From a virus, in IMG/VR virus record IMGVR_UViG_3300031521_000011, positions 104,245-168,244 of that record: a stretch of DNA of 64,000 bases; one strand, given 5' to 3'. Both the position numbers and the translations under genes were made by a program. This document shows positions 2 through 27,152 of the stretch, piece by piece; within the stretch, counting starts at the first letter, position 1; every line of letters starts with the position of its first letter. Below the pieces are notes generated by a model, which saw only the letters and a program-made list of their open reading frames with translations, was not told where the DNA came from and did not search any database.

Positions 2-2434
2 ATGCAGGTACTCAAAAATGGCGCTGATAAGAATCCAAATGGAACTCTTGGATTTATAACGAATTTATATAATAATACCGAAGGCAGCACGGACGCAGAA
101 AAACTGAGCAATCTTACAGTAAGGGCAAACCGAACCATGCAGGAAGTCATGGGAAATCAAACCTTCCAATCAGCATATTCCGGATTGTTCAATTATAATG
201 ATGCCAGTGGTAAGTTTGAGCTTGACCAGAGTGCATATGATAGGTTTACTAGCGGGAATATGTCATATGCCGACATAATGGGTGAATCATCAAAGAAGAT
301 GACTGCATGGAGCGCGGATGGAAAGCATACCGGATTCCAGTGGCAGCAAATGGCTAACGATACCTTTATGGATCTTACGGATGTACAGAAAGGAAAACTT
401 CAAGGAACATTCTTTTCCACTGTTGGCCGTGATACGATGTTTGGTGAGACTGACCAATCTACAATCATGGCAGGCCTTGGCATAGGCTCAACTGACGCTG
501 ATAGGAAATTGTTCACTCAACTTTACGGTACCCTTGGATCTAAAGGCAATATTTATCAGAATGAGATGTCTCAAGAGGGATTCAATCAGACTATGCAGGC
601 GAAAATAGATTCTGAATCTGAAGGTCTGTGGCAGTCAATCAAAAAAGTCTTTAACACCATGTCTGATAAAATCGGAGATGCGGTTGAGCCTATGCGCAAA
701 AGCATGGAAGAGGCTGGTGTTACATGGAAAGATATTTGGAACGGAACGCATCCAACAAATCGCGTACAGTTTCAGGATCCATTAAATTTCACTGACTCAG
801 GCGCTACCGGATCAGCAGAATCGATATCCAAGTCGATGAATGCATATATCTCAGACTATCAAAAGTATGGTGGTACGACTAAGGATCTCGAATTGCTTGA
901 CCCTAAAGGACAACTCAGTGTGACTGGCGGAGGCGTTGATCAATATGGATCAAAGATGACCGGTATCATGAAAATAGAAGATATCGACTATCTTAATAAC
1001 GTCATGAACTCGAAAGCTAAAAGTACCTTCGAGCAGCATGGTGCCCTTATCCCAGCGCTTACTGTTGATGATATTGCCGCCTCAATGAATTTAACTTTCA
1101 ATGAAGGGGACGACAAGCAGTCAATAACTCAAGAGGCGATGCTCCGTAAATATTCAAAAATGATACAACAGCTTCAGGGCGGAAAGGCCAGTGGCCTCAA
1201 TGACTATGAGATCGTTGCAGGTAATCAGGCCCTTTCCACTATGTCGGATGCGCTTAAATGGATGGGCGTTGATGTGGCGCCTGTTAATAATCTAGGATAC
1301 TCTAAAGAAATGCTTGCAACACTCCAAAATCAATATGGTGGAAAGACCACAGATTACTATGGAGCCCTTAAAACACAAGCGGAGAAGTCTGCTAAATTAG
1401 ATCTTACGAATAATGGATCAGATGCTACACGAAATGCAATAAATAGCCTAACGGCCGATGTAGCTGCGACAGGAGTAGCTCAAAGTAAAGCTGAATCTGA
1501 TATTATGGCGGCCATGTCTGGATATTCAGATGCTGATTCGATTGCTGCCAGGGATCAGATTTCTAAACTTATGGACTCTATTCGCTCCGGAGATTTGGCT
1601 CCTGAAGATGCCAGAGCTCAATTTAATGCATTAAAATCATCAGGAAAAGCCAGTAGTCTTTATAGTGAAGTGTCAGACAAGTTCAACTTAGTAGCAGACA
1701 AAGCTATGGCAAAATCTTCAGGTGAAGCAATTCTCAAGACACGTAGTGAGGATAGTAGCAGGATTCTCGGGGCAATTAAAGCAGGAGGAAGTGTTGCCAG
1801 CCTCATTGGTGGAGATGCTGCATATAATAAATTACTGAGTGGTGCTACAGTTTCAACAGATAGAAACCTTGGTGATATAGCAAAGGATACTACTCAGGGT
1901 TGGTGGATGCTTGGTGGAGGTCTTGGCTATATTGCTGGAGCAATCTTCAATTCAAACACAAAGAAGACCAAAAAACTAAATGAACTGAGTCAAGAGCAGC
2001 TTTCTGCTCTCACCGATAAGGACATGAGTGGACTTGGCGGGGAAGATCTTATCGAAAATCTAAGGAGCGGTCTTCGTAATCAATTTATTGGCAATACTGT
2101 TAATCCCACAGCATGGCTACAGGACGATAAAATCAAGGCCCTACTACCAAACGCAAATGAGTTATTGAATATTGCTAACGGCGATGGTAATAAAGCCTGG
2201 TCCACCTCAGAAATAGATTCACTCGTTTCAAAAATAATGGAAGATATCTCTGCTGGCGGCGCCGGCAAAGCAGAAGACGAAAAGCAAAAAGTAGACAGTG
2301 GATCTGTAAAATCCCAAGATGATGCAATGGTTACTCTTGGACAAGAGCATCAGAAGGCACTGAGCAAATACATGGATACAGTACGTCAAGAGTTCACTGA
2401 CATACAGGGACAGATAAGCATACTTTCAAAATAA
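2..2434 (+). CDS. Tape-measure-like tail protein, C-terminal part (5' truncated by window)
   Basis: Long Ala/Gly/Ser/Asp-rich helical ORF with one hydrophobic patch (WWMLGGGLGYIAGAIF), directly upstream of tail lysin/baseplate genes; assigned by composition and position. Confidence 0.55.
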   Translation: MQVLKNGADKNPNGTLGFITNLYNNTEGSTDAEKLSNLTVRANRTMQEVMGNQTFQSAYSGLFNYNDASGKFELDQSAYDRFTSGNMSYADIMGESSKKMTAWSADGKHTGFQWQQMANDTFMDLTDVQKGKLQGTFFSTVGRDTMFGETDQSTIMAGLGIGSTDADRKLFTQLYGTLGSKGNIYQNEMSQEGFNQTMQAKIDSESEGLWQSIKKVFNTMSDKIGDAVEPMRKSMEEAGVTWKDIWNGTHPTNRVQFQDPLNFTDSGATGSAESISKSMNAYISDYQKYGGTTKDLELLDPKGQLSVTGGGVDQYGSKMTGIMKIEDIDYLNNVMNSKAKSTFEQHGALIPALTVDDIAASMNLTFNEGDDKQSITQEAMLRKYSKMIQQLQGGKASGLNDYEIVAGNQALSTMSDALKWMGVDVAPVNNLGYSKEMLATLQNQYGGKTTDYYGALKTQAEKSAKLDLTNNGSDATRNAINSLTADVAATGVAQSKAESDIMAAMSGYSDADSIAARDQISKLMDSIRSGDLAPEDARAQFNALKSSGKASSLYSEVSDKFNLVADKAMAKSSGEAILKTRSEDSSRILGAIKAGGSVASLIGGDAAYNKLLSGATVSTDRNLGDIAKDTTQGWWMLGGGLGYIAGAIFNSNTKKTKKLNELSQEQLSALTDKDMSGLGGEDLIENLRSGLRNQFIGNTVNPTAWLQDDKIKALLPNANELLNIANGDGNKAWSTSEIDSLVSKIMEDISAGGAGKAEDEKQKVDSGSVKSQDDAMVTLGQEHQKALSKYMDTVRQEFTDIQGQISILSK

Positions 2435-2450
2435 GCCGAGGTGATATAAT

Positions 2451-2783
2451 ATGACACCGGAAAGAATAATGGTCAGTCTCGCTAAATTATCAGCAGAATC
2501 CGAATCTTACAATGATGAGATACAGGGTCTGCTGAATTCAGCATACGCAAATACTAATCGGAATACTATTTCAGATCCAGTTTCCGGAGCAAAGGTGTTG
2601 TCGGAAGAGTACATCTTTACAGTATCAAATCAGGATTTCCTAAACAATATTGATAGAATAGAGTATCTGCAGTCGAAAGTACTGGAAAACTGTGCCACAG
2701 TGAAGCAGCTAATTGCTTCACTGTCAGTAACACAGTTTACGCCGGTTCAGGCTGCCGCACTATATACTTCAATCGGCGCATAG
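2451..2783 (+). CDS. Hypothetical protein, tail module
   Basis: RBS GAGGTG before ATG; tightly packed in operon. Confidence 0.6.
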   Translation: MTPERIMVSLAKLSAESESYNDEIQGLLNSAYANTNRNTISDPVSGAKVLSEEYIFTVSNQDFLNNIDRIEYLQSKVLENCATVKQLIASLSVTQFTPVQAAALYTSIGA

Positions 2784-2797
2784 CATGGAGGTATGAC

Positions 2798-4720
2798 ATG
2801 ATTTCCTATACAACGGATGTTGATGGAGCTAAATTAGAAGCCAGAATCGTAAACGGAGAACTTATAATCGTGCAAATGCTCGGATCGGTTGAAACTCCAT
2901 TCACGAACCCAAATGCATATGCAATGATAACACCTATACCAGGATGTTCGACCTTGACATGGGGTGATTTTGCAAGCCCGGCATGTATCAAGGGATGTCT
3001 CAAGACACCCGTTTCCACAAACGCCGGCATTCGGGCCAATATAACAATATTGGCTCAATCGATTGAGGCTCTCGGTAAGAAGTTGGGAGCTACTCCAGTT
3101 ATTGTTCTTGGGTGGATTACTACTGCTCATTCAAAGCACATATCATCTGATAGCGCCCAGCTGAATGATCACTTTAATGGTCTGGCTGCGGATGTGAGAT
3201 TTCTTGATTCAACCGGTAAAGATGTTGATATTAGGATGTTTTATGGTGCAGCCGTAACAATAGGTCACTACGACACCTCATCTATAGTGCCAAGTGAACC
3301 AGGTACTTTCGTAAGGCCATTCTCGGCAATACTAATTCAGTCATCATTTGTGCATTTGTCAATAAGCAGCACGGCATCAAGTCAAGCTCCAGTTGCACCT
3401 CAATACAAAGGGAGCTTTGCATCCGATTGGGCTGAAGCCATTAACGGTAAATTACTCTCCGTACCATCTGGAGTGGCAATCCCGACTTCTACAAATGCTA
3501 ATGTCTCGAAGTTGGATACCCTTGGTAGATTTGGAACATTGGGTGATATTTCAAAATATCTCAAGGTAGATGCTGCAACGTTGTATTATATGAATTTCGG
3601 ACATGCTTGCCCCATAGATACTGATCCAGCTACAGTGTCTGCAGTGCCTCTAACATCTGTTTATTATCCGAATACACCAGCCAATGCGTTCTTGCTTGGT
3701 GCAGAGACTCACCAGGCTCTTGCAGCAAACAGTGATACTATAAAGGGTGGAATTATCGCAGAGTATGCTGCTTCAAAAAGCGCCATGATGGTCATAAGTA
3801 GTGATATGGATAAATATGTTGCAGATGGCATGACATTGGCACAAGCAGCAAATGCAGAGGCTATAGCTGAAGTTTCTTCATTGAAAGGAACAGATGATAG
3901 CTATAAATCCGCAAGGACATATGTTCGCACACATGCACTGAAGTCTGTACCATATGAGCGTGCCTGTTTGGTTGTGACTACCCAAACAAAAACTACATAC
4001 ATAGATTTTGTGCTTAATCCAAACTCGCTCAATATTGGATACTCCAATGTCGTTACCCCACAAAAGACTAGCGCTGGTTGGTTTCTGTCAAGACAAGGAG
4101 GAAATCTTATCAGCATCTCATTTACCGGAAATCTATTTGATGCAGTGAATATTGAAGAAAAGCATCTATTCTTAGAGGCGTACAAGCAAAATTGTGTTGA
4201 CCAGAAAACAATGAGCGACGAGTATGTAAACGAATCTATTGTATATCTGTATATCGAAGGCGTGAAGTATACAGGATATGTTAGTTCCATAAATCTAGTG
4301 AAATCTACACAGCAGCAGGTTACCTATTCCTATTCTCTTTCCTTTATCGGTGTAGATGACACATATATGCAGTATAAAATGAAAAATGGAGATTCTACTT
4401 CTAGTGATTCTTACTTTACTGGGGATAAGAATACAGATGATGATACTGATCCGTCGCCATCTGGACATTCCACGGGGGATGTAATTATCAATCCGCCTCC
4501 GCCGTCCCATAATCCAGATCCTGTAGTTAAATTCAAAACAGCCAAGGTTACAGCTTCTTCGCTAAATGTGAGATCTGGTCCCGGGACGAATTATAAAGTC
4601 GTAAGTAGCAAGCGCAAAAATGACTCAATAACCATATACGGCACAAAAAAGCCGTGGCTTAAGATTGACAAAACAAAGAATTTGTGGCTACATGGTTCCT
4701 ATACGACTTATAAATTCTGA
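2798..4720 (+). CDS. Tail-associated protein: peptidase M15-like domain, central tail-initiator-like region, C-terminal SH3b
   Basis: NDHFNGLAADV...FVHLSI resembles M15 Zn motifs; AKVTASSLNVRSGPGTNYKVV is a typical SH3b start; Pro-rich linker. Confidence 0.7.
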   Translation: MISYTTDVDGAKLEARIVNGELIIVQMLGSVETPFTNPNAYAMITPIPGCSTLTWGDFASPACIKGCLKTPVSTNAGIRANITILAQSIEALGKKLGATPVIVLGWITTAHSKHISSDSAQLNDHFNGLAADVRFLDSTGKDVDIRMFYGAAVTIGHYDTSSIVPSEPGTFVRPFSAILIQSSFVHLSISSTASSQAPVAPQYKGSFASDWAEAINGKLLSVPSGVAIPTSTNANVSKLDTLGRFGTLGDISKYLKVDAATLYYMNFGHACPIDTDPATVSAVPLTSVYYPNTPANAFLLGAETHQALAANSDTIKGGIIAEYAASKSAMMVISSDMDKYVADGMTLAQAANAEAIAEVSSLKGTDDSYKSARTYVRTHALKSVPYERACLVVTTQTKTTYIDFVLNPNSLNIGYSNVVTPQKTSAGWFLSRQGGNLISISFTGNLFDAVNIEEKHLFLEAYKQNCVDQKTMSDEYVNESIVYLYIEGVKYTGYVSSINLVKSTQQQVTYSYSLSFIGVDDTYMQYKMKNGDSTSSDSYFTGDKNTDDDTDPSPSGHSTGDVIINPPPPSHNPDPVVKFKTAKVTASSLNVRSGPGTNYKVVSSKRKNDSITIYGTKKPWLKIDKTKNLWLHGSYTTYKF

Positions 4721-4728
4721 TAGGAGAT

Positions 4729-7700
4729 TTGTCAATGAGAACCATCGAGGCAATTCCTGGATACTTAATCTTCTTTGACGATATTAGGGTGGACCAGTTC
4801 GTTAAAAGCTTCAGTGTGAATTTATCTACTGATGGCGCAATGGGACAGGCCAGTTTTGATATGCTCTATTTGCCAGATCTAGCGTCGCAAGATTTTCGCG
4901 GTGTGGATGATGAGCTTTATAAAGTAATTGACACCATAGACAATATGACAAATGCGAAGGTGTTTATTAAAAATATCTTTTCAAACAAATATATGCAAGT
5001 ATTTGACGGCAATATAAAGGGAAAGTCAGTAACTCGGTCACCGAATGGAAACACATTGGTGTATAGCGCCATTGACTACATGGGGTGGCTTAATCGTACA
5101 ATCGTTCCACTCCAAATACCAGTGGCGCAGAGAAAATTCAACCTGGATACTCTGCGTTGGAACGCAAATGGTGTGGACATCAATAAGGTGTGGTTGATGT
5201 CTAATGATGCAACTCTTGGATTTAAGGGCAAGAATGTTAAGCAGATGATGGCGATTATCTCCAATCAGGCTCTTGCCAGCAACAAACTTTATTCACAAGA
5301 CGGAAGTGTTGCGGTATGGGATAATGCCATTGGCCGTATTGATATAATGGGTGATATTGATGCGCGTTGGCGCAATCCTGGCATTTTGGATTTCGTTATT
5401 AATCCACAACTTCAGAGCGTTCAGTCTTTCTATGTTTTTGCCAACGACCTGGTAAGCAAATTAATGTTTGAATTCTATCAGGATCGAGATGGAAAAATTC
5501 GCATCAAGCCTCCATTCTGGAATCAGCCAGTAATGAAAAGCCATATCATAGATGCCTCCATGATATTTGAAATATCTGAAAGATGTGATTGGACTCAGGG
5601 CAAAACCAGGGTCATTACCACCGGTGGAATTGAGGACATATATACTACAACAGGAAATGTTGCCGCTCAAACAATCGTTACTCCAATCAATGTGTATGTT
5701 GGCGGAGGTTTTGGTGGTAAGGCATACACTATGTCTAATGTATTTCAGGAAAATCTGTTTTCAACAGATGGTGGTACTAAGGTTATAGATGGCGGTGGAG
5801 ATTCTGTTTTCAAGAGTGTCAAGGAAAGCTTTTCATCATTAACCCTTGGTGCGCGAGCTCATGTTCAAAGGCTTGCGCTCTATAGTCGCGGAAAAATATT
5901 GAGCAGCGCTAAAATCGTTGATAATGGATATGCTGCCATCAAGAATAGCCCAACCGCAGGTCAGACAAAAAAATGGTCTGACATAAATAGTATATGGTTC
6001 TCAGATGGCGGAGTCGATACTGGAGCCAATGGACAATATTCAAAGAATATTGTCGATACATTTAACTCCATGAAGTTAATTTCGTATATAGCTGGACAAA
6101 CCGGGCCTTATGACTCAGTCGATACAACTCCATCCGGATATGATGTTGAAATTATTCCAGCCTCCGGAGACTTTACTAGCAATGGTGCGACTACACAGCA
6201 GATCGTTCAATATATTAGAAATAAGACTAATGGATTTGAGTCCATTAGTCTACCTCGTGTTGATGGAAAGAATCCGTGGTCCACCAAAGAGGCATTTGTG
6301 ACGGATTTTGTTTCACAGTATATAATTGAGGCTATAGCGGAAAAAATGACACCGGGACTCGTTATCGCCCAGGCTCTCGTATCCACCATGACCTTAACGA
6401 GTATCGATGTAACGGGTGGTCTTAAGATTATGGGAGACAGCAAGGTTGGTAGTCAACCAGAGAGAAAGCTTATCGATGGCGATATGAACTTTGCTTTCCT
6501 ATATTATATAGTAGAAAATAAAACCGGGGATACTGGCGATACTGGCGATACTGGCAATACTGGCGATACCGGAAATACAACCCCAAACAACACCAATAAA
6601 GATGTATTCACAAGCGACGGTAGCCCGAGTTCCGCCGGAGCAATGCTTGGAGCTATAATAAAATCAAGAGTTGGTGGCGGATATGTATATGCGACAGGAT
6701 ATAATGCAGTCAAGGGTAGAGCTGGAACAATTTGTACTGAATCAGTTATCCAGACGGCTGCACATAATCATCCCGTGGCATTTGCTGAAGTAATAAAGAA
6801 AGGAAAATGGAAAGGCAAGACGATCTTAGAGGTTGCTAGACAGTGGCTTGGATATGAAACATGGGATTGTTCTGGCTTGGTTACATGGGCTTGCGTACAG
6901 ATTGGTATACCCAGATCACTCGTTGGGAATTGCAATGCCATATTCCACGTAAATGGAAAGCATCCTGGTGTTTTAAAAATAATGAAGAATGCCGGTATGG
7001 GTGGGCGTATTTCAAATACTGAGCCCGTACAGGTGGGAGACTTACTGTTCTGTCTTAGTTCTAGTAGTGAATCTCACCACATTGGTATGGTTTCAGATAT
7101 ACAAGGATCCGTTAAATATGTTACTGAGGCATCCAGTACTACGTCCGGAGTTGTTCATGGTCCAATGAAGTCTACAAAATGGAGGGTATGGGCCAGATGG
7201 GACTTTACCCATACTGCAATGCGTGGCGATGCTGGAAGAGCGTATGCCCCCCCAACCAGGCTTGAAATTCCCGCGCTTACAAAGGGCGGTAAAACTGGTA
7301 CTGGCAATTCGACAGATATAGGTGATACTGGAGATACTGGAGATACAACTCCTGATGAAGAAGATGTTAGCAATGTTGCCAATCTCAGTCAATTATTGAA
7401 GTGTTCACAAGAAGAACTTCGATATGGCGCTAACGTACTTGAGGTATCTCAGCCGCTTATTCGGTTCAGTACAATGAATGCTACAGCAGTCAGTGTACAG
7501 GGAGCAGATAGTAAATCCATGAGTGCGCTTGCTGCGTATAGTAGGTTTATGTATTTTTTATCAAATTCAATGACGAGAACTGCATCAGTTAGTATGATTG
7601 GTGCTCCATGGTTGCGCCCTGGGTTTAATGCCTGGGTGGATCCAACTCATACTGATAAAATCTATTACATAAATACTGTTTCTCATAGTGGAAACCCACA

Positions 7701-17531: not shown

Positions 17532-20480
<2,949 letters not shown>

Positions 20481-20517
20481 TATATCGAATATCAAAGAAT
20501 TAAATGGGGAGGAAATA

Positions 20518-21099
20518 ATGAAATCTGAATGGGAACAAGCAACAGATTGGGAAAGGGAATGGCACGGAAACTGTGTCAACTCATACCAAGAGGAGACTAA
20601 ACAGATTGAATACGCAAAACGAATGGGTCTGGTTATCGAAGGTAGAGATGGAAGATACCCTATTATCGATTTCCATGACAAATCTGTTATCGACGTTGGA
20701 GGTGGACCATATTCATTGCTACTCAAGGGAATCAATCTGCATGGAACCGTGCTTGATCCTTGTAAATACCCTCAATGGGTATACCAAAGATATGCGGCGG
20801 CCGGAATCCATATCATCGAGATGAAGGCTGAGGACTACTGCAATCCACGCTATGACATTGGGCTTCTGTATAACTGTCTGCAGCATACAGAAAATCCAAA
20901 GAAGATCATTGAAAATATGAAAAAGATGTGCGACTTGATTTATATCCATGAATGGCTAGATACACCAATATCGGATGGCCACATACAGACAATCCGGGAA
21001 GCGGATCTTAATGAGTGGTTAGAAGGAATTGGAATGATTGGATATGAACGCTGGAGCGACACTGTTGTAACGCCGTACTACTACGGATTGTTTATATAG
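20518..21099 (+). CDS. Class I SAM-dependent methyltransferase
   Basis: SVIDVGGGP motif I; YDIGLLYNCLQH; RBS GGAGG before ATG 20518. Confidence 0.75.
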   Translation: MKSEWEQATDWEREWHGNCVNSYQEETKQIEYAKRMGLVIEGRDGRYPIIDFHDKSVIDVGGGPYSLLLKGINLHGTVLDPCKYPQWVYQRYAAAGIHIIEMKAEDYCNPRYDIGLLYNCLQHTENPKKIIENMKKMCDLIYIHEWLDTPISDGHIQTIREADLNEWLEGIGMIGYERWSDTVVTPYYYGLFI

Positions 21100-21117
21100 A
21101 AAGAAGGAGTAAGCAGA

Positions 21118-22233
21118 ATGGAGAAACCAACAATTCATGTTATAGGGATGCCGCATATTCAAACCTCAAAAGCATATTGCAGAGATGCTTATGGAATGAA
21201 GATACTTCATTTTTGCCAAATGATGCATAAAGAAGGATACAAAATCATGCTTTATGCCAGTGAGGATAATGAGACGCCTGCCGAATTATTCACATGCATC
21301 ACTAAAGCTCAGCAAGCCAAGCTGGGTTTTGAAGGCCCTGAAGACTATCTGAACATACAGTTCGATGTCACCAAGCCTATCTGGCAGATATTTCAGTCCA
21401 GAGTGACTTATTTTCTGAATAAAAATGTAAGTCCCGGAGACATCATTGGTACATTCTCTGGGCTTTGCGACAAATCCATTGCTGACGCCTTTCCGCAATG
21501 CTATTTTGTAGAACTCGGGATCGGGTATTCTGGCGTATTTTCTGGCTTCCGCATCTTTGAATCTTATGCCTGGATGCATACGATTTACGGAGCATCCACC
21601 GGAAACGCATCTGCAACAGACGGCAAATTCTACGATACTGTGATCCCGAATTATTTTAATCCCGATGATTTTCCATTTAAAAGCGAAAAGGAAGATTATT
21701 TCCTATTCGTCGGGAGAATGATCTATCGGAAAGGAATTGTCATCATCAACGACATGGCTAAGCGTATGCCAAATACTAAATTTATCTTTGCAGGACAAGG
21801 CGCCGTTCAGTATAAAAACAAAATAGGTTGTAGCGATGGAACTGTTCTTGAGGGGGATAACCTGGAGTATATCGGAACTATCAATATAGAGCAGCGTGGT
21901 AAGCTGATGAGCGGAGCAAAAGCTCTCATTGTGCCTACTATTTACATCGGACCTTTTGAGGGCGTTCATGCAGAGGCTATGTTTTGCGGAACGCCCGTAA
22001 TAACCACGAACTTTGGTTGCTTTACAGAGACGAATATCGATGGTGTTACTGGATACCGATGCTCTACGATCAAACAATTCGTTGAAGCTGCAAGCAAGGT
22101 ATCATCCCTCGATCCTATGAAGATACGGGCTCATGCCCTGTCAAAATTTTCTATGGATAGTGTTGCTCCTCAATATACGAAATATTTTGAGCAAATTCAG
22201 GGTTTAGCTAACGGCGGATTCTATGAAATGTAG
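21118..22233 (+). CDS. Glycosyltransferase family 4 (GT-B fold)
   Basis: FLFVGRMIYRKG and PTIYIGPFEGVHAEAMFCGTPVIT motifs. Confidence 0.9.
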   Translation: MEKPTIHVIGMPHIQTSKAYCRDAYGMKILHFCQMMHKEGYKIMLYASEDNETPAELFTCITKAQQAKLGFEGPEDYLNIQFDVTKPIWQIFQSRVTYFLNKNVSPGDIIGTFSGLCDKSIADAFPQCYFVELGIGYSGVFSGFRIFESYAWMHTIYGASTGNASATDGKFYDTVIPNYFNPDDFPFKSEKEDYFLFVGRMIYRKGIVIINDMAKRMPNTKFIFAGQGAVQYKNKIGCSDGTVLEGDNLEYIGTINIEQRGKLMSGAKALIVPTIYIGPFEGVHAEAMFCGTPVITTNFGCFTETNIDGVTGYRCSTIKQFVEAASKVSSLDPMKIRAHALSKFSMDSVAPQYTKYFEQIQGLANGGFYEM

Positions 22234-22289
22234 TTGAAAACTGGCGCACTGAAAGATTATTAGGTATACTTAGATTCGGGGTGATAATT

Positions 22290-23864
22290 ATGGCTTTCGT
22301 AACGGCTGGCGTTAAAATCTACGCCACCAACTATAATAGAGTAAAGGGCAGAATAGCAGCTGAGTTAGCTCGGCGTGGATTGACATCCACATTGAGAAGC
22401 AATGTTACCGCTGGAATAAAGATGCTGGCAACTGATATGTCTAGCCTTCAAACCAATATTAATAAGATTGCCACGCACTATTCTTCGCTTATGGCGGCTG
22501 GTACTAAAATCAGAGCTTCTGACTATAATAACCTGGATGACCAAGTGCAGGCGCATGTCAACTTTGATATTTATTCGCTGGTCGCCACGGATTGCGCCTC
22601 AAGCTGTACCGGTGGATGCTATACCGCCTGCTCAGCAAGCTGTAAAAATACGTGTACCGGTAACTGCTCAACGTCCTGTAGCGGAGCGTGTGGTGTTGTC
22701 TGCACCGCTTCATGTGGTGGCTGTGGCGCAGGCTGTTGGAGTACCTGCGCGGCGGGATGCGCTGGCTGTAGCGGCACCTGCAATGGATGCACTGGACAAT
22801 GCTCATCAACATGCAAAACGGCATGCGCCGGCTGTGGAACGAGTTGCGTGACGGCATGCAGCACCGGATGCAATGGATGCACCGGGCACTGTAATGGATG
22901 CACTGGTCAATGTTCCGCCAAATGCGCTACTGTATGCGCAAGCTGCTCTGGACAGTGTAGCAGCGCATGCGCCGGTGGATGTCATGGATGCTCAGGACAG
23001 TGCGATACAGACTGCACAGGGGCCTGTACCGGGCGTTGTCTTACCGTATGCGGTGTATGTGCCTCTAGCTGCTCAAGCGCTTGTAAGGGCTGCAGTGGGT
23101 GTTCTACGTCATGCGGATCTAACTGCTCGACGAACTGTGGTACAGATTGTGCTGGTGGATGCAATACCAACTGCACTGGCTCATGTACTTCGACCTGTTC
23201 TATAGCGTGCTATAGTGTTTGCGGGGGCTGCTCTAACGGATGCGCCAGCTGTACTGGAGGATGTCAGGGTGCCTGTAAGGGATGCGATACGACGTGTAGC
23301 ACAGGATGCAGTGGGGCCTGTAAGGGGTCATGCAACAACGGCTGCACTGGTTGTGATACAGTATGTACAGGCGGCTGTAAGGGATGCAGTGCATGTGGAA
23401 ATGGAAGCTGCTCTCAATCATGCGGAATCGCGTGTTCGTCCTGCAAGGGTGCATGCACTGGTTGCTCAACCGGATGTTCTACAAGTTGTAATGCCGCATG
23501 CACTACTGGTTGCGGAAGTACCTGTGATAATAACTGCGCCAGTGATTGTGAAGGTGGATGCACCGGTACCTGTAATGGCTGTTCTACCACATGCACCGGC
23601 GGATGTTCAACCGCCTGTACGGCTTGTGGTGGAAATTGCGATAATAACTGCGCCAGTAATTGCGAGGGTGGATGCACCGGTGGATGCACGGCATGCAATA
23701 CTACATGCAGCAGTGGGTGTAAGGCAACCTGTAAAGATGCATGCGGCGGATGTGCGGCCGCATGCCTGGGTGGCTGCACTGGATGCGCCGCATTATGTAC
23801 AGGTGGCTGCACTGGATGCAGCTCCAACTGTATGGGTTCATGCAAAACGGGTGCTACTACCTGA
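22290..23864 (+). CDS. Giant CXXX-repeat Cys-rich protein, putative rSAM substrate (524 aa, 111 Cys)
   Basis: 101-aa Cys-free N-terminus, then 423 aa of CxxxC/CxxC repeats (hand count 111 Cys, no Pro); adjacent rSAM/SPASM. Confidence 0.88.
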   Translation: MAFVTAGVKIYATNYNRVKGRIAAELARRGLTSTLRSNVTAGIKMLATDMSSLQTNINKIATHYSSLMAAGTKIRASDYNNLDDQVQAHVNFDIYSLVATDCASSCTGGCYTACSASCKNTCTGNCSTSCSGACGVVCTASCGGCGAGCWSTCAAGCAGCSGTCNGCTGQCSSTCKTACAGCGTSCVTACSTGCNGCTGHCNGCTGQCSAKCATVCASCSGQCSSACAGGCHGCSGQCDTDCTGACTGRCLTVCGVCASSCSSACKGCSGCSTSCGSNCSTNCGTDCAGGCNTNCTGSCTSTCSIACYSVCGGCSNGCASCTGGCQGACKGCDTTCSTGCSGACKGSCNNGCTGCDTVCTGGCKGCSACGNGSCSQSCGIACSSCKGACTGCSTGCSTSCNAACTTGCGSTCDNNCASDCEGGCTGTCNGCSTTCTGGCSTACTACGGNCDNNCASNCEGGCTGGCTACNTTCSSGCKATCKDACGGCAAACLGGCTGCAALCTGGCTGCSSNCMGSCKTGATT

Positions 23865-23887
23865 TCTGAATGGTCCGAACACACTAC

Positions 23888-23924
23888 AATATCTGCCCGA
23901 ATCAGTTCGAGCAGATATTTTTTT
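23888..23924 (+). terminator. Rho-independent terminator after the Cys-rich gene
   Basis: AATATCTGC-c-CGAA-tcag-TTCG-a-GCAGATATT followed by T run. Confidence 0.7.
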
Positions 23925-23925
23925 C

Positions 23926-23954
23926 TTGTCAACCTATCTGTCCTGAGGTATAAT
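23926..23954 (+). promoter_or_regulatory. sigmaA/sigma70-type promoter for the rSAM maturase
   Basis: TTGTCA-17 nt-TATAAT, 31 nt upstream of ATG 23986. Confidence 0.7.
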
Positions 23955-23985
23955 ACGACCAGAATCAAAAAATAGCGAGGTAACT

Positions 23986-26328
23986 ATGTTAAGGAAGCAA
24001 GGATATCGCTCACAGTATCAGGACCTTTTCGTTCGCATGTATCCAGAACTGTGCGAAACTGGACATCAAATACTTGCAACTAAAACAATTACATTCGTGC
24101 TTACAGAGGCTTGTCCTCTGAGGTGTTCGTACTGTGTTACAGCGGGAACAATGCTTCTTGATGGAAATTTTCAGGAAGTGCCTATTGAGAAAGTTAAAAT
24201 TGGAGATACAATCATGGGATTCGATGAAAATAATCCAATGAATAGAAAGCAGAGAAAAGTATTTCCATCTAAAGTTACAGCAATATTTGAAAGGGATGCT
24301 GAAGTTATTCGCATTTCCTTTGATAATGGGGAAAGCTTAGAAATCACAGAAGAGCATCCGCTACTTACAGATAGAGGCTGGAAACTTGCTGGTAAAGTAT
24401 CCTGTGCAAATCTCGTAAAAAGCTTAACACCCAATATAAAAAATACCATACCAGTAGACATTGATAGTCTTTCATACAAGACTGGGTATGTAGTTGCCTC
24501 TTGGAAGGGCGATGGTAGTGTCAAAAGATATACACGGACAGTTGGAAATACAGAAGGTCTTGATATGTTCAAAATTCGCCTTGCGGTGAAAGATGATGAA
24601 ATAATAGACCGCACGGAAAGATTTAGCAGAAATATAGGTATTGAATTTTATAGAAAACTATATCTAGTCTCTAAAAAATATAATATGAAAAAAGAAGCTT
24701 TGTTTGCTAATACTCGAAAAGTCTATAATCAGCTAAATAATTTGTTCACAGAAAATATTGGTAGAAATGAATCTGTGGAGTATGCAAGTGGATTTTTAGC
24801 TGGAATTTATGATACAGAGGGTAGTATAAGCCCTAAGGGAATTATACGCATCTCACAACTAGAGGGTGAAGTACTGAACGAGATACAACGTTGCCTGTCT
24901 ATTCTGAAAATACCATTCGTAAACGAGGTATTTTCAGGTAGGGGTGCACACAATATTCGTATTATCGAACCCTCTTGTGAGCATACTCGAACACTCAATG
25001 CGCTACGCTTTATTAGGCAAGTACGTCCTTCTGTTGCGCGAAAAGGTGTAAGCGTTTTCTATAATAGATCCTTACTTCTTGAGACTCGCATAGTCAAAAT
25101 AGAAAAGGTAGGTAATAGAAAAGTATACAATGTTGAAACCGACTCCCATACCTACATTGCAAACTATATGGCAGTTCATAATTGCTATCAGTGCAATAAA
25201 GATCACTCAGCCATCATGAGTAAGGAAGTGGCTGATAAAGCCATCGATACAATCCTATCCAATGAGGCTATGCATGGATATATGGACTCAAATCAATCCC
25301 CATCCGTCATCCTTGACTTTATTGGCGGTGAGCCTCTGCTGGAGGCAGAGCTCATGGATTATATCGTCCAACAGTTCAGGAAGAAAGCCTACCTTCTCAA
25401 TCATCCATGGGCCAAGTACCATATGATAAGCATCTCATCCAACGGAATCCCGATTATATCGAATCCGAAGGCTGTAGAGTTTATTAAGAAATACAAAAAT
25501 AAATTGAGTCTCACCATCACAATCGATGGCAACAAGGAGCTCCATGATGCCTGCCGGGTGTATCCTTCAGGGGCTGGCTCCTATGACGACGTTCGCAAGG
25601 CCATAGACATTGCTCGGCAGTATGTCACAATGACAAACACCAAGGTGACTCTGGCACCTGAAAACGTACAGTACCTGACTGAGTCAGTCACCCACCTGTT
25701 TGATCTTGGGTTCACAGATGTGCACGCAAATTGCGTATTTGAAAACGTTTGGAAGATTGAAAATGCCCAGGAGCTATATCGACAGATGATAAAGCTTGCA
25801 GACATTATGATTGATGGAAAACTCTATGAAAAGTATGAGTGTTCCTTGTTCGATGACTTTATTGGTCACCCCATGCTCGATAGCGATACACAAAATTGGT
25901 GCGGAGGCTCAGGTCAAATGTTGGCTATTGGCACAGATGGCCGATTATTCCCATGTATTCGCTTTATGAAGTATAGCTATAGTAATCAAATTCGTGAAGA
26001 ATACGAGGTTGGCGACGTTGATCGTGGCATCGACAGGAAAGAAGATAATAAGTATCTGCAGATTCTTGGAACAATCACGCGCCAGGCTCAATCTACAGAT
26101 GAGTGCTTGACCTGCCCGGTAGCCAGCGGATGCTCCTGGTGCACAGGTTACAACTACGATTACTTCGGCACGCCGAATCACCGGGCTACATTCATCTGCT
26201 GGCCGCATAAGGCGAGGGTGTTGGCCAACCATTACTACTGGTCAAAGCTGGCTGAAGCTGGTATCATAGATACCGTTCCTGTTCTTCATTTAACTGATGA
26301 AGATATTAAGATAGTCAGGGGCGAATGA
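23986..26328 (+). CDS. Radical SAM/SPASM peptide maturase, CXXX-repeat target family, intein-containing
   Basis: After intein removal TEACPLRCSY|CYQ = CxxxCxxC; DFIGGEPLL; ITIDGNKELHDACR; SPASM WCGG...FPCIRF...CLTCPVASGCSWC...FIC. Confidence 0.92.
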   Translation: MLRKQGYRSQYQDLFVRMYPELCETGHQILATKTITFVLTEACPLRCSYCVTAGTMLLDGNFQEVPIEKVKIGDTIMGFDENNPMNRKQRKVFPSKVTAIFERDAEVIRISFDNGESLEITEEHPLLTDRGWKLAGKVSCANLVKSLTPNIKNTIPVDIDSLSYKTGYVVASWKGDGSVKRYTRTVGNTEGLDMFKIRLAVKDDEIIDRTERFSRNIGIEFYRKLYLVSKKYNMKKEALFANTRKVYNQLNNLFTENIGRNESVEYASGFLAGIYDTEGSISPKGIIRISQLEGEVLNEIQRCLSILKIPFVNEVFSGRGAHNIRIIEPSCEHTRTLNALRFIRQVRPSVARKGVSVFYNRSLLLETRIVKIEKVGNRKVYNVETDSHTYIANYMAVHNCYQCNKDHSAIMSKEVADKAIDTILSNEAMHGYMDSNQSPSVILDFIGGEPLLEAELMDYIVQQFRKKAYLLNHPWAKYHMISISSNGIPIISNPKAVEFIKKYKNKLSLTITIDGNKELHDACRVYPSGAGSYDDVRKAIDIARQYVTMTNTKVTLAPENVQYLTESVTHLFDLGFTDVHANCVFENVWKIENAQELYRQMIKLADIMIDGKLYEKYECSLFDDFIGHPMLDSDTQNWCGGSGQMLAIGTDGRLFPCIRFMKYSYSNQIREEYEVGDVDRGIDRKEDNKYLQILGTITRQAQSTDECLTCPVASGCSWCTGYNYDYFGTPNHRATFICWPHKARVLANHYYWSKLAEAGIIDTVPVLHLTDEDIKIVRGE
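24133..25182 (+). mobile_element. Intein with LAGLIDADG homing endonuclease (350 aa)
   Basis: Block A CVTAGT, block B TEEHPLLT, YVVASWKGDGS and FLAGIYDTEGS endonuclease motifs, VYNVET...YIANYMAVHN|C; more AT-rich than flanks. Confidence 0.95.
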
Positions 26329-27152
26329 GAATGAAATATAAACCGTTTTTTGGCGTTACAGAAAAGATTGATGACGATATTGCGGATATAAAGAAGGAAT
26401 CTGCAAAGATTCGTGAACCCGAAATTGGATGTTCAGTAGGCTGCTTTGGCTGTGGAACTACATGTATTGGAGCATGCTTTGCTGCATGCGTCGGTGCATG
26501 CATAGGTAACTGCGCTGGTAGCTCCATGGGGAATATGAAGCCCCCTGTCGTATGTAATCAGCCAAAATGCATGAGCTGCAGCAGCGAAGAGGTATTAATG
26601 TCATTTCCTGTTACGGAGGATTTGAGCTTATATCTTGAAAAACTCCTTACCGAGAGGATATCGCTGCAAGAGATTATTATATCGGTAGGGAATGACCCAA
26701 CCATCGAGAATGACGAAAAATTTCAAGAACTTATGCAGCAATATAAAGATGCATTCGTGGCGTGGGACTACTGCTACATAATGCTGGCAAAGGAATATGT
26801 TCCTGCAGAATATATGGGCGGTATTTCATTTTCATTCAACGAAAAAACATTCGTATATAAAGGAGAGGTAAAAAACATGAGCAATGCAAAAGTACTCACA
26901 GAAGCCATCGAGTCAGAGGAAAAGGATACCCTTCAGAACAGCTGGTACGACAGAGAGGCACTCCATGAGCTGATCAAGGAAGGCTCCACATCCATCGAAG
27001 TAATGAGGGAATTCAAGGAAGCCAACCGTATCTATCAAAAGACATGGAACGATCTGCTGAAGAAGTATTTCCCCAGCGTGGATACATCAACCAACGGCAC
27101 GGCATCGTGGACTTGCGACTTCGAGGCCAACACGGTCACGGTCACCATGTAG
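26325..27152 (+). CDS. Short Cys-rich precursor fused to two CXXX-repeat modification-system helper-like domains
   Basis: GCSVGCFGCGTTCIGACFAACVGACIGNC, then two ~90-aa related domains ending ISFSFNEKTF and WTCDFEANTVTV; in-frame internal RBS+ATG at 26877. Confidence 0.7.
   Translation: MRMKYKPFFGVTEKIDDDIADIKKESAKIREPEIGCSVGCFGCGTTCIGACFAACVGACIGNCAGSSMGNMKPPVVCNQPKCMSCSSEEVLMSFPVTEDLSLYLEKLLTERISLQEIIISVGNDPTIENDEKFQELMQQYKDAFVAWDYCYIMLAKEYVPAEYMGGISFSFNEKTFVYKGEVKNMSNAKVLTEAIESEEKDTLQNSWYDREALHELIKEGSTSIEVMREFKEANRIYQKTWNDLLKKYFPSVDTSTNGTASWTCDFEANTVTVTM

Follow-up and report, generated by a model that had tools for sequence, protein, structure and literature searches.

What is a bacteriophage doing with a protein of 524 residues, 111 of them cysteine, encoded directly behind its tail-fibre genes and beside a radical S-adenosylmethionine (SAM) enzyme? 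We analyzed a stretch of 64,000 nucleotides (the window), which is the last 64 kb of the 168,244-bp IMG/VR phage record IMGVR_UViG_3300031521_000011, and focused on this gene, whose product is designated P0001. P0001 consists of a cysteine-free N-terminal domain (N-domain) followed by an unbroken ladder of closely spaced Cys residues, and among the members of its phage family, which is large and unstudied, it is unusually long. In the account that we favor, and which we hold with moderate confidence, P0001 is a two-part late phage protein whose ladder is cross-linked by the neighboring radical SAM enzyme, whose N-domain is retained, and which serves as an accessory fibre or fibre tip.

The P0001 gene, its cysteine ladder and its N-domain

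The open reading frame (ORF) at 22290-23864 on the plus strand was translated by script and encodes 524 amino acids (aa) and a stop codon. The ATG at 22290 is the likely start codon rather than the GTG at 22281, because homologues open with MA..G.. in the same register and a GGGGTG lies 7 nucleotides (nt) upstream. The features of the gene are as follows, with the supporting analysis in parentheses.

22290..23864, plus strand: P0001 gene, N-domain and Cys ladder (ORF and translation, phrog_6085 match, homologues P0004-P0006)
22290..22592, plus strand: N-domain, aa 1-101, Cys-free, three related strand-helix units (shuffle test, AlphaFold2, family alignment A2)
22299-22343, 22407-22451 and 22491-22535, plus strand: three N-terminal motifs, aa 4-18, 40-54 and 68-82 (local alignment)
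22593..23843, plus strand: Cys ladder, aa 102-518, unbroken, with 84 CxxxC, 25 CxxC and one CxxxxC (script; AlphaFold2 confidence, pLDDT, of ~40)
23526..23733, plus strand: sole tandem duplication at the DNA level, 114-nt unit, 1.8 copies, 74% matches (Tandem Repeats Finder, TRF)

The 111 Cys of P0001 extend from aa 102 to aa 518. The 110 spacings between them were counted by script as 84 of four residues, 25 of three and one of five. The initial annotation of this DNA, made from the sequence and a list of its ORFs, had described a Cys-free N-terminus of 101 aa, a Pro-free core of 423 aa, and 84 four-residue and 25 three-residue units; these figures proved exact, and only the single five-residue spacing had been missed. 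Pro is absent from the entire protein. Cys accounts for 21% of P0001 and 26% of the core, which is composed mainly of C (111), G (82), T (59), S (57), A (43) and N (23). Between the Cys residues, position +1 is rich in S and T, position +2 holds G, T or S, and position +3 holds G, A or S. The spacing count contained no CC or CxC motif, and no signal peptide or hydrophobic stretch was seen in P0001 on inspection.

The sequence CDNNCASxCEGGCTG was found twice, at aa 412 and aa 450, as had been noted, and both blocks arise from the 114-nt duplication. Protein self-comparison detected a 38-aa duplication (aa 405-442 and 443-480) and also an older one of ~37 aa (aa 159-182 and 196-219). No higher-order periodicity of the ladder was detected by the same comparison beyond these two local duplications. 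As only one duplication is visible at the DNA level, the Cys periodicity is kept at the protein level and does not reflect recent repeat expansion. Overlapping ORFs of up to 243 aa in the other five frames (22365-23968, both strands) were rejected as genes and regarded as by-products of the repetitive composition.

The three N-terminal motifs, whose relatedness had been suggested by eye, gave local alignment scores of 40, 45 and 33 against shuffle means of ~17 (z of 6.4, 8.3 and 4.0), so that their kinship is upheld. AlphaFold2 with the family alignment A3 modelled residues 10-100 at pLDDT 81-93, with helices at residues 12-28, 47-60 and 76-90 and an extended AGxKIxA(T/S)D segment before each of them. 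The longer alignment A3 was needed for a confident model; an alignment of the N-domain only gave pLDDT 62. Prediction of an N-domain homotrimer (three copies, alignment A2) scored 0.01 against a mark of 0.42, a result that favors neither an oligomer nor a monomer.

The motifs had also been likened to the attachment motifs of tail-fibre proteins. This likeness was not confirmed. Pfam gave no match to aa 1-101 or its halves at E ≤ 5, and no tail family of PHROGs was matched by 81 N-domains. The best profile match in the PDB had an E-value of 0.25, and Foldseek of the N-domain model against the PDB returned nothing at E ≤ 0.001. The wide VIA-align search reached a best Z of 6.0 (Lon N-domain, BARA domain and others), which is within the noise for helical models. 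The neighboring fibre of a related phage locus (L010) carries a superficially similar I-x-A-D-x-x-N-x-L-K motif; hhalign of A2 against this fibre gave a probability of 0.1. The fold search in BFVD matched only uncharacterized gut-phage proteins. Two shape matches in ESM-Atlas are leads only: one of 87 aa at 1.8 Å to a viral cluster rich in Flg_new, and one of 100 aa at 3.7 Å to a viral cluster with Peptidase_S74 in 91% of its members.

The maturase cassette

Two genes follow that of P0001 on the same strand, the first of which encodes a radical SAM/SPASM maturase interrupted by an intein.

23986..26328, plus strand: radical SAM/SPASM maturase, 780 aa, of the family with CXXX-repeat targets (TIGR04115, PapB and intein domain matches)
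24133-25182, plus strand: LAGLIDADG intein, ~350 aa, at aa 50-399 of the maturase (Intein_splicing, LAGLIDADG_3 and Hint matches)
26325..27152, plus strand: companion protein P0003, 275 aa (weak TIGR04116 likeness; sequence)

The extein part of the maturase scored 403.6 bits with TIGR04115, above the cut-off of 350, and 395.4 bits in the genome search. The second-best family was the PapB ranthipeptide maturase (173.5 bits, cut-off 340); the SCIFF maturase gave 85.8 bits and TIGR04463 gave 43.8 bits against a cut-off of 525. The complete set of SPASM Cys motifs can be read in the maturase sequence. The intein sits inside the radical SAM CxxxCxxC motif, between CPLRCSY and the third Cys. Since the +1 extein Cys is a cluster ligand, the maturase would be unable to bind its cluster before splicing.

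P0003 resembles TIGR04116 weakly in its C-terminal part (last ~50 residues; 17.1-18.6 bits, E 0.0015-0.0045, cut-off 50); the TIGR04116 protein of a bacterial-type locus described below (L004) scored 104.6 bits. P0003 also has a CXXX run of its own, with nine Cys at aa 35-66. This run is rich in F, I and V, whereas the ladder of P0001 is polar. P0003 may be a second substrate fused to a helper.

The pairing of substrate and enzyme recurs. Within IMG/VR, a gene for an N-domain with CXXX repeats lay within ~2.5 kb of a radical SAM gene in 26 of 27 loci, and the enzymes were 36-40% identical to the window maturase. The target proteins in the loci found with the N-domain profile had 200-245 aa and 21-35 Cys. 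TIGR04115 was the best family for all seven neighboring radical SAM proteins that were sampled, with four above the cut-off and three just under it. The alternatives raised in the initial annotation, namely metal binding, disulfides and a redox sink, are made less likely by this near-obligate maturase.

The phage family and its known counterparts

P0001 matched phrog_6085, a family of unknown function, at E 9.9e-15 over aa 49-175. A phmmer search with aa 1-112 against 1.8 billion representative proteins gave three matches (P0004-P0006; E 1.8e-6 to 7.5e-4), all of which are proteins of 149-182 aa with a P0001-type N-domain and then a short CXXX tail. A profile built on these matches retrieved at least 1,377 phage proteins of 81-338 aa with the same plan. 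Among the 121 relatives listed, the median was 206 aa and 25 Cys, the maximum was 36 Cys, and the ladder began near residue 107. The N-domain of P0001 is 17-37% identical to those of the phage family. The junction, DCASSCTGGC in P0001 and DC(K/A)SSCTG(L/G)C in the family, is the best-conserved part, and the ladder start C-x-[SA]-[SGA]-C-[TS]-G-[LTA]-C is conserved everywhere. Some relatives carry Pfam PF27846 (tSAM_targ_Cxxx_rpt) in precomputed tables. No close relative of P0001 was found in GenBank phages, in IMG/VR by single-sequence query, or among proteins of 288-917 aa.

P0001 had been called giant, and a comparison of repeat number across homologues had been proposed. We made this comparison, and the count does vary between relatives. 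Within its own family P0001 is indeed large, with 111 Cys against a maximum of 36 among the 121 relatives of near length. It is not the record: longer runs of 142 Cys (P0177) and 157 Cys (P0181) occur in proteins of 1,643 and 1,803 aa. In a non-exhaustive search of longer relatives, P0001 is the longest unbroken ladder among the retrieved proteins that consist only of an N-domain and a ladder, at ~4.4 times the family median.

The longer relatives are modular. A globular domain of 190-500 aa follows the N-domain and CXXX repeats in six of them (P0128, P0133, P0147, P0148, P0152 and P0154). Laminin_G_3 or another globular domain is inserted inside the N-domain in P0157 and P0137, and extra domains precede the N-domain in P0126, P0127, P0146 and P0171. 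F5/8-type-C or Flg_new domains share a chain with the ladder in P0171 and P0181, and some relatives are multidomain, adhesin-like proteins of 1,600-1,900 aa. The additional N-terminal and C-terminal domains of these long proteins matched no named family in PHROGs. There are also proteins without the N-domain in which other, quite unlike domains precede a CXXX array (P0177, P0181 with Flg_new, and P0179). In the bacterial-type homologue of L004, a twin-arginine (Tat) signal stands in place of the N-domain, and TatA and TatC are encoded in the operon.

As ladders elsewhere follow other domains or a Tat signal, the N-domain is an interchangeable module and not a universal element of enzyme recognition. 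Because long relatives insert domains in it or add globular domains C-terminal to it, it is also unlike an ordinary leader, and it looks like a retained domain rather than a disposable one. The initial annotation had likewise set the N-terminus apart from a leader peptide; this view is strengthened by the confident AlphaFold2 model (pLDDT 81-93), the at least 1,377 homologues, the domain insertions and fusions, the lack of a peptidase or exporter, and the position in the fibre module.

Three loci of relatives showed further arrangements. The L004 locus (2222-6270 of MT837480, filed as 'Bacteriophage sp.') looks bacterial and comprises a CXXX protein with a Tat signal, a TIGR04115 maturase (630 bits), a second SPASM protein, a TIGR04116 protein, TatA and TatC. 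In a 241-kb phage contig (L012, 6446-10818), three consecutive CXXX proteins are encoded upstream of one TIGR04115 maturase (456 bits): one of 442 aa with an N-domain, one of 304 aa with a ladder only, and one of 605 aa with an N-domain, a ladder and a C-terminal domain. In the IMG/VR contig L027 (7995-8580 and 10438-11002), which at 168,232 bp is nearly as long as the record studied here, the gene for an N-domain and CXXX repeats appears frame-broken; ~2 kb downstream of it are a second ORF rich in Cys, Asn, Ser and Gly and the first part of another radical SAM gene.

We compared P0001 with known systems. The proteins of phrog_6085 and the gut-phage family (P0004-P0124) have in common with it the three-unit N-domain, the junction motif and the maturase neighbor. 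A typical member has ~206 aa and 25 Cys, in contrast to the 111 Cys of P0001 in one unbroken run. The CXXX-repeat radical SAM system of NCBIfam (TIGR04115, TIGR04116 and TIGR04117) shares a maturase over the cut-off, a tandem CXXX target and a small companion protein next to it, and relatives of P0001 carry the corresponding PF27846. Its catalogued targets are peptides of ~100 aa, whereas P0001 has 524 aa, and they have a short leader or a Tat signal instead of a folded, phage-specific N-domain encoded in a tail module. P0001 scored 19.2 bits with the target model TIGR04117, under the cut-off of 50; this model describes the paralogues of one bacterial lineage, so the low score does not remove P0001 from the system class. 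The system is thus already catalogued in NCBIfam and Pfam, and what is new here is the anatomy of the N-terminal domain, the evidence for a retained module and the size of the ladder.

The radical SAM core and the full SPASM domain are shared by the window maturase with PapB, the freyrasin maturase, and with other ranthipeptide or SCIFF maturases (CteB, QhpD). PapB links Cys to Asp in CX3D motifs. In P0001 the residue four positions on is another Cys, no acceptor is conserved, and the substrate is ~10 times longer. CrpA and CrpC of Methanococcus voltae (TIGR04463) likewise join a SPASM radical SAM enzyme with a large, repetitive, Cys-rich protein (PMC13692751). They differ in that the enzyme is of another radical SAM family, the repeat of CrpA spans 17 residues and carries CxxQ/D motifs, and the pair belongs to archaeal cells and not to a virus. 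Collagen-like (GXY) phage tail fibres, such as that encoded at 17532-20480 in the window, also have a short-period repeat of small residues as a long middle part, and the repeat number varies among relatives. Their period is three with Gly, in contrast to four or three with Cys in P0001; nothing points to a triple helix in P0001, which relies on a dedicated enzyme.

Genomic position and possible role of the ladder

The P0001 gene closes a baseplate and fibre module, in the same direction as the fibre genes and directly after them. Upstream are genes for a baseplate wedge, a 982-aa collagen-like Collar fibre, a methyltransferase-like protein and a GT4 glycosyltransferase; an endolysin gene follows the cassette, and then genes for membrane proteins that are possible holins. 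In a related locus (L011) the order is TMP, Dit, Sipho_Gp37, a 650-aa protein, the CXXX protein, the radical SAM enzyme and a holin. In three others (L003, L010 and L005) a fibre with a chaperone C-terminus of the Peptidase_G2/S74 type is encoded immediately upstream of the CXXX gene. No peptidase or exporter gene was found in the cassette or in the sampled loci L005, L010, L011 and L012. Database and literature searches found no cultured relative and no virion proteome.

Two signals lie between the substrate gene and the maturase gene.

23888..23925, plus strand: terminator-like hairpin and then a U-run, just past the P0001 stop codon (RNA fold −16.9 kcal/mol, z −2.5; unlisted by a simple consensus scan)
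23926..23954, plus strand: sigma-70-like promoter match before the maturase, TTGTCA-17-TATAAT (11 of 12 matches, the best of the region; consensus match only)

The hairpin and the promoter-like site separate the substrate from the maturase. P0001 probably belongs to the structural transcript. In the same module, the segment at 17532-22233 comprises the G-X-T-rich, collagen-like Collar fibre (17532-20480), the methyltransferase-like gene and the GT4 glycosyltransferase gene (phrog_3408); this arrangement may represent a second system for the post-translational modification of a fibre.

We propose the following role for P0001. The N-domain is a folded domain of ~100 aa that is built from three related strand-helix units and defines a large phage-specific family, and the 417-aa run of 111 Cys would be the substrate of the adjacent TIGR04115-class radical SAM/SPASM enzyme. 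Most likely, the spliced maturase, aided by P0003, uses many of the 111 thiols to form thioether bridges that cannot be reduced. We infer this chemistry from the family likeness of the maturase to PapB, SCIFF and QhpD enzymes and from the precedent, shown in 2026, of the large Cys-rich protein CrpA, on which the SPASM radical SAM enzyme CrpC installs ranthionine cross-links and whose N-terminal domains aid engagement (PMC13692751). The bridged ladder would form a stiff stretch that resists proteases and reductants, and the N-domain probably stays attached and would act in assembly or docking, with either the maturase complex or the virion as its partner. The outcome may be an accessory fibre or fibre tip on the tail apparatus of a phage that infects an anaerobe. 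Around anaerobes disulfides would not survive; thioethers would. A more specific version, in which dozens of thioether staples stiffen a virion fibre that has the ladder as its shaft or tip, and in which the N-domain is a previously undescribed anchoring or assembly fold, is put forward only tentatively.

Several observations weigh against this proposal. Modifying every site would consume up to 111 SAM per chain, and the phage lacks a SAM synthetase gene. No residue between the Cys is conserved enough to be named as the acceptor, and AlphaFold2 leaves the ladder without a confident fold (pLDDT ~40). No homology of the N-domain to known virion protein families was detected in Pfam, PHROGs, the PDB (sequence and fold) or by hhalign. 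The N-domain is common to phages of very different size and tail type, a spread that suits a partner within the cassette, such as the maturase or helper, at least as well as it suits a baseplate socket. The link to the virion rests on gene order and fusions, and phages also carry cargo genes ('morons') at this place, after the fibre genes and before the lysis cassette. No experimental study of the CXXX system, TIGR04115 or PF27846, or of ranthipeptides in phages, turned up in the literature searches.

Other explanations were weighed against the same evidence. It is unlikely, in our judgement, that P0001 gives rise to a product of the RiPP type (peptides that are made on the ribosome and modified after translation), in which the N-domain acts as a large leader, docks the maturase or helper and is then removed, and the cross-linked Cys polymer is freed at lysis as a bacteriocin-like molecule, a chelator or matrix material. 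Such a product would agree with an N-domain that always stands N-terminal to the ladder, with the strong conservation of the junction DC(K/A)SSCTG(L/G)C, with a maturase from a peptide-maturase superfamily, with a cassette that moves among unrelated phages with its N-domain intact, and with the aid that the N-terminal domains of CrpA give to enzyme engagement (PMC13692751). However, neither the cassette nor the sampled loci contain a protease, exporter or immunity gene, and the globular domains inserted in the N-domain and the large C-terminal domains of relatives are unlike a leader and core. Furthermore, CXXX arrays without the N-domain follow other domains (P0177, P0181 and P0179), and the bacterial form has a Tat signal instead, which argues that the N-domain is not generally needed for recognition.

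We consider it still more doubtful that the thiols remain free, in a metal- or Fe-S-binding or redox-buffering polymer on the particle or in the infected cell, with the radical SAM enzyme modifying few sites or acting in another way. Its attractions are the high Cys content of the protein and its core, the restriction to CxxC and CxxxC spacings with small polar residues between them, and a ladder for which AlphaFold2 gives no fold when ligands are left out. It would nevertheless leave unexplained why a PapB-like SPASM enzyme of the thioether type is an almost obligate partner, and the CC and CxC motifs of the metallothionein kind are absent. The Tat signal of the bacterial homologue, a route that typically exports cofactor-loaded or folded proteins, would suit a free-thiol polymer, but it suits a pre-cross-linked protein equally. 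Least probable among these accounts is a cargo cassette outside the tail, in which the pair beside the lysis genes has a host-directed or intracellular role. The boundary between fibre and lysis genes is a fitting place for such a cassette, the maturase unit has a promoter-like site of its own, a terminator-like hairpin ends the substrate gene, and gene position and fusions are what tie P0001 to the virion. Yet relatives hold the gene in the slot of the receptor-binding protein after TMP, Dit and Tal, others are fused or adjacent to fibres with chaperone domains or are adhesin-like proteins of 1,600-1,900 aa, and in the window the substrate gene is co-directional with the fibre genes and directly follows them.

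Thioether-forming radical SAM enzymes are known for producing small peptide natural products. If the proposed cross-linked fibre is correct, a phage that staples a 500-residue virion protein more than 100 times would extend RiPP-type chemistry to structural virology. P0001, with its long unbroken ladder and complete cassette, is a good test case. A thioether-stapled fibre would be a new structural protein polymer, the non-reducible counterpart of collagen-like and disulfide-ladder fibres, and would offer a genetically encoded, enzyme-cured rod of tunable length. It would also explain how the fibres of phages of gut anaerobes stay intact where disulfides fail.

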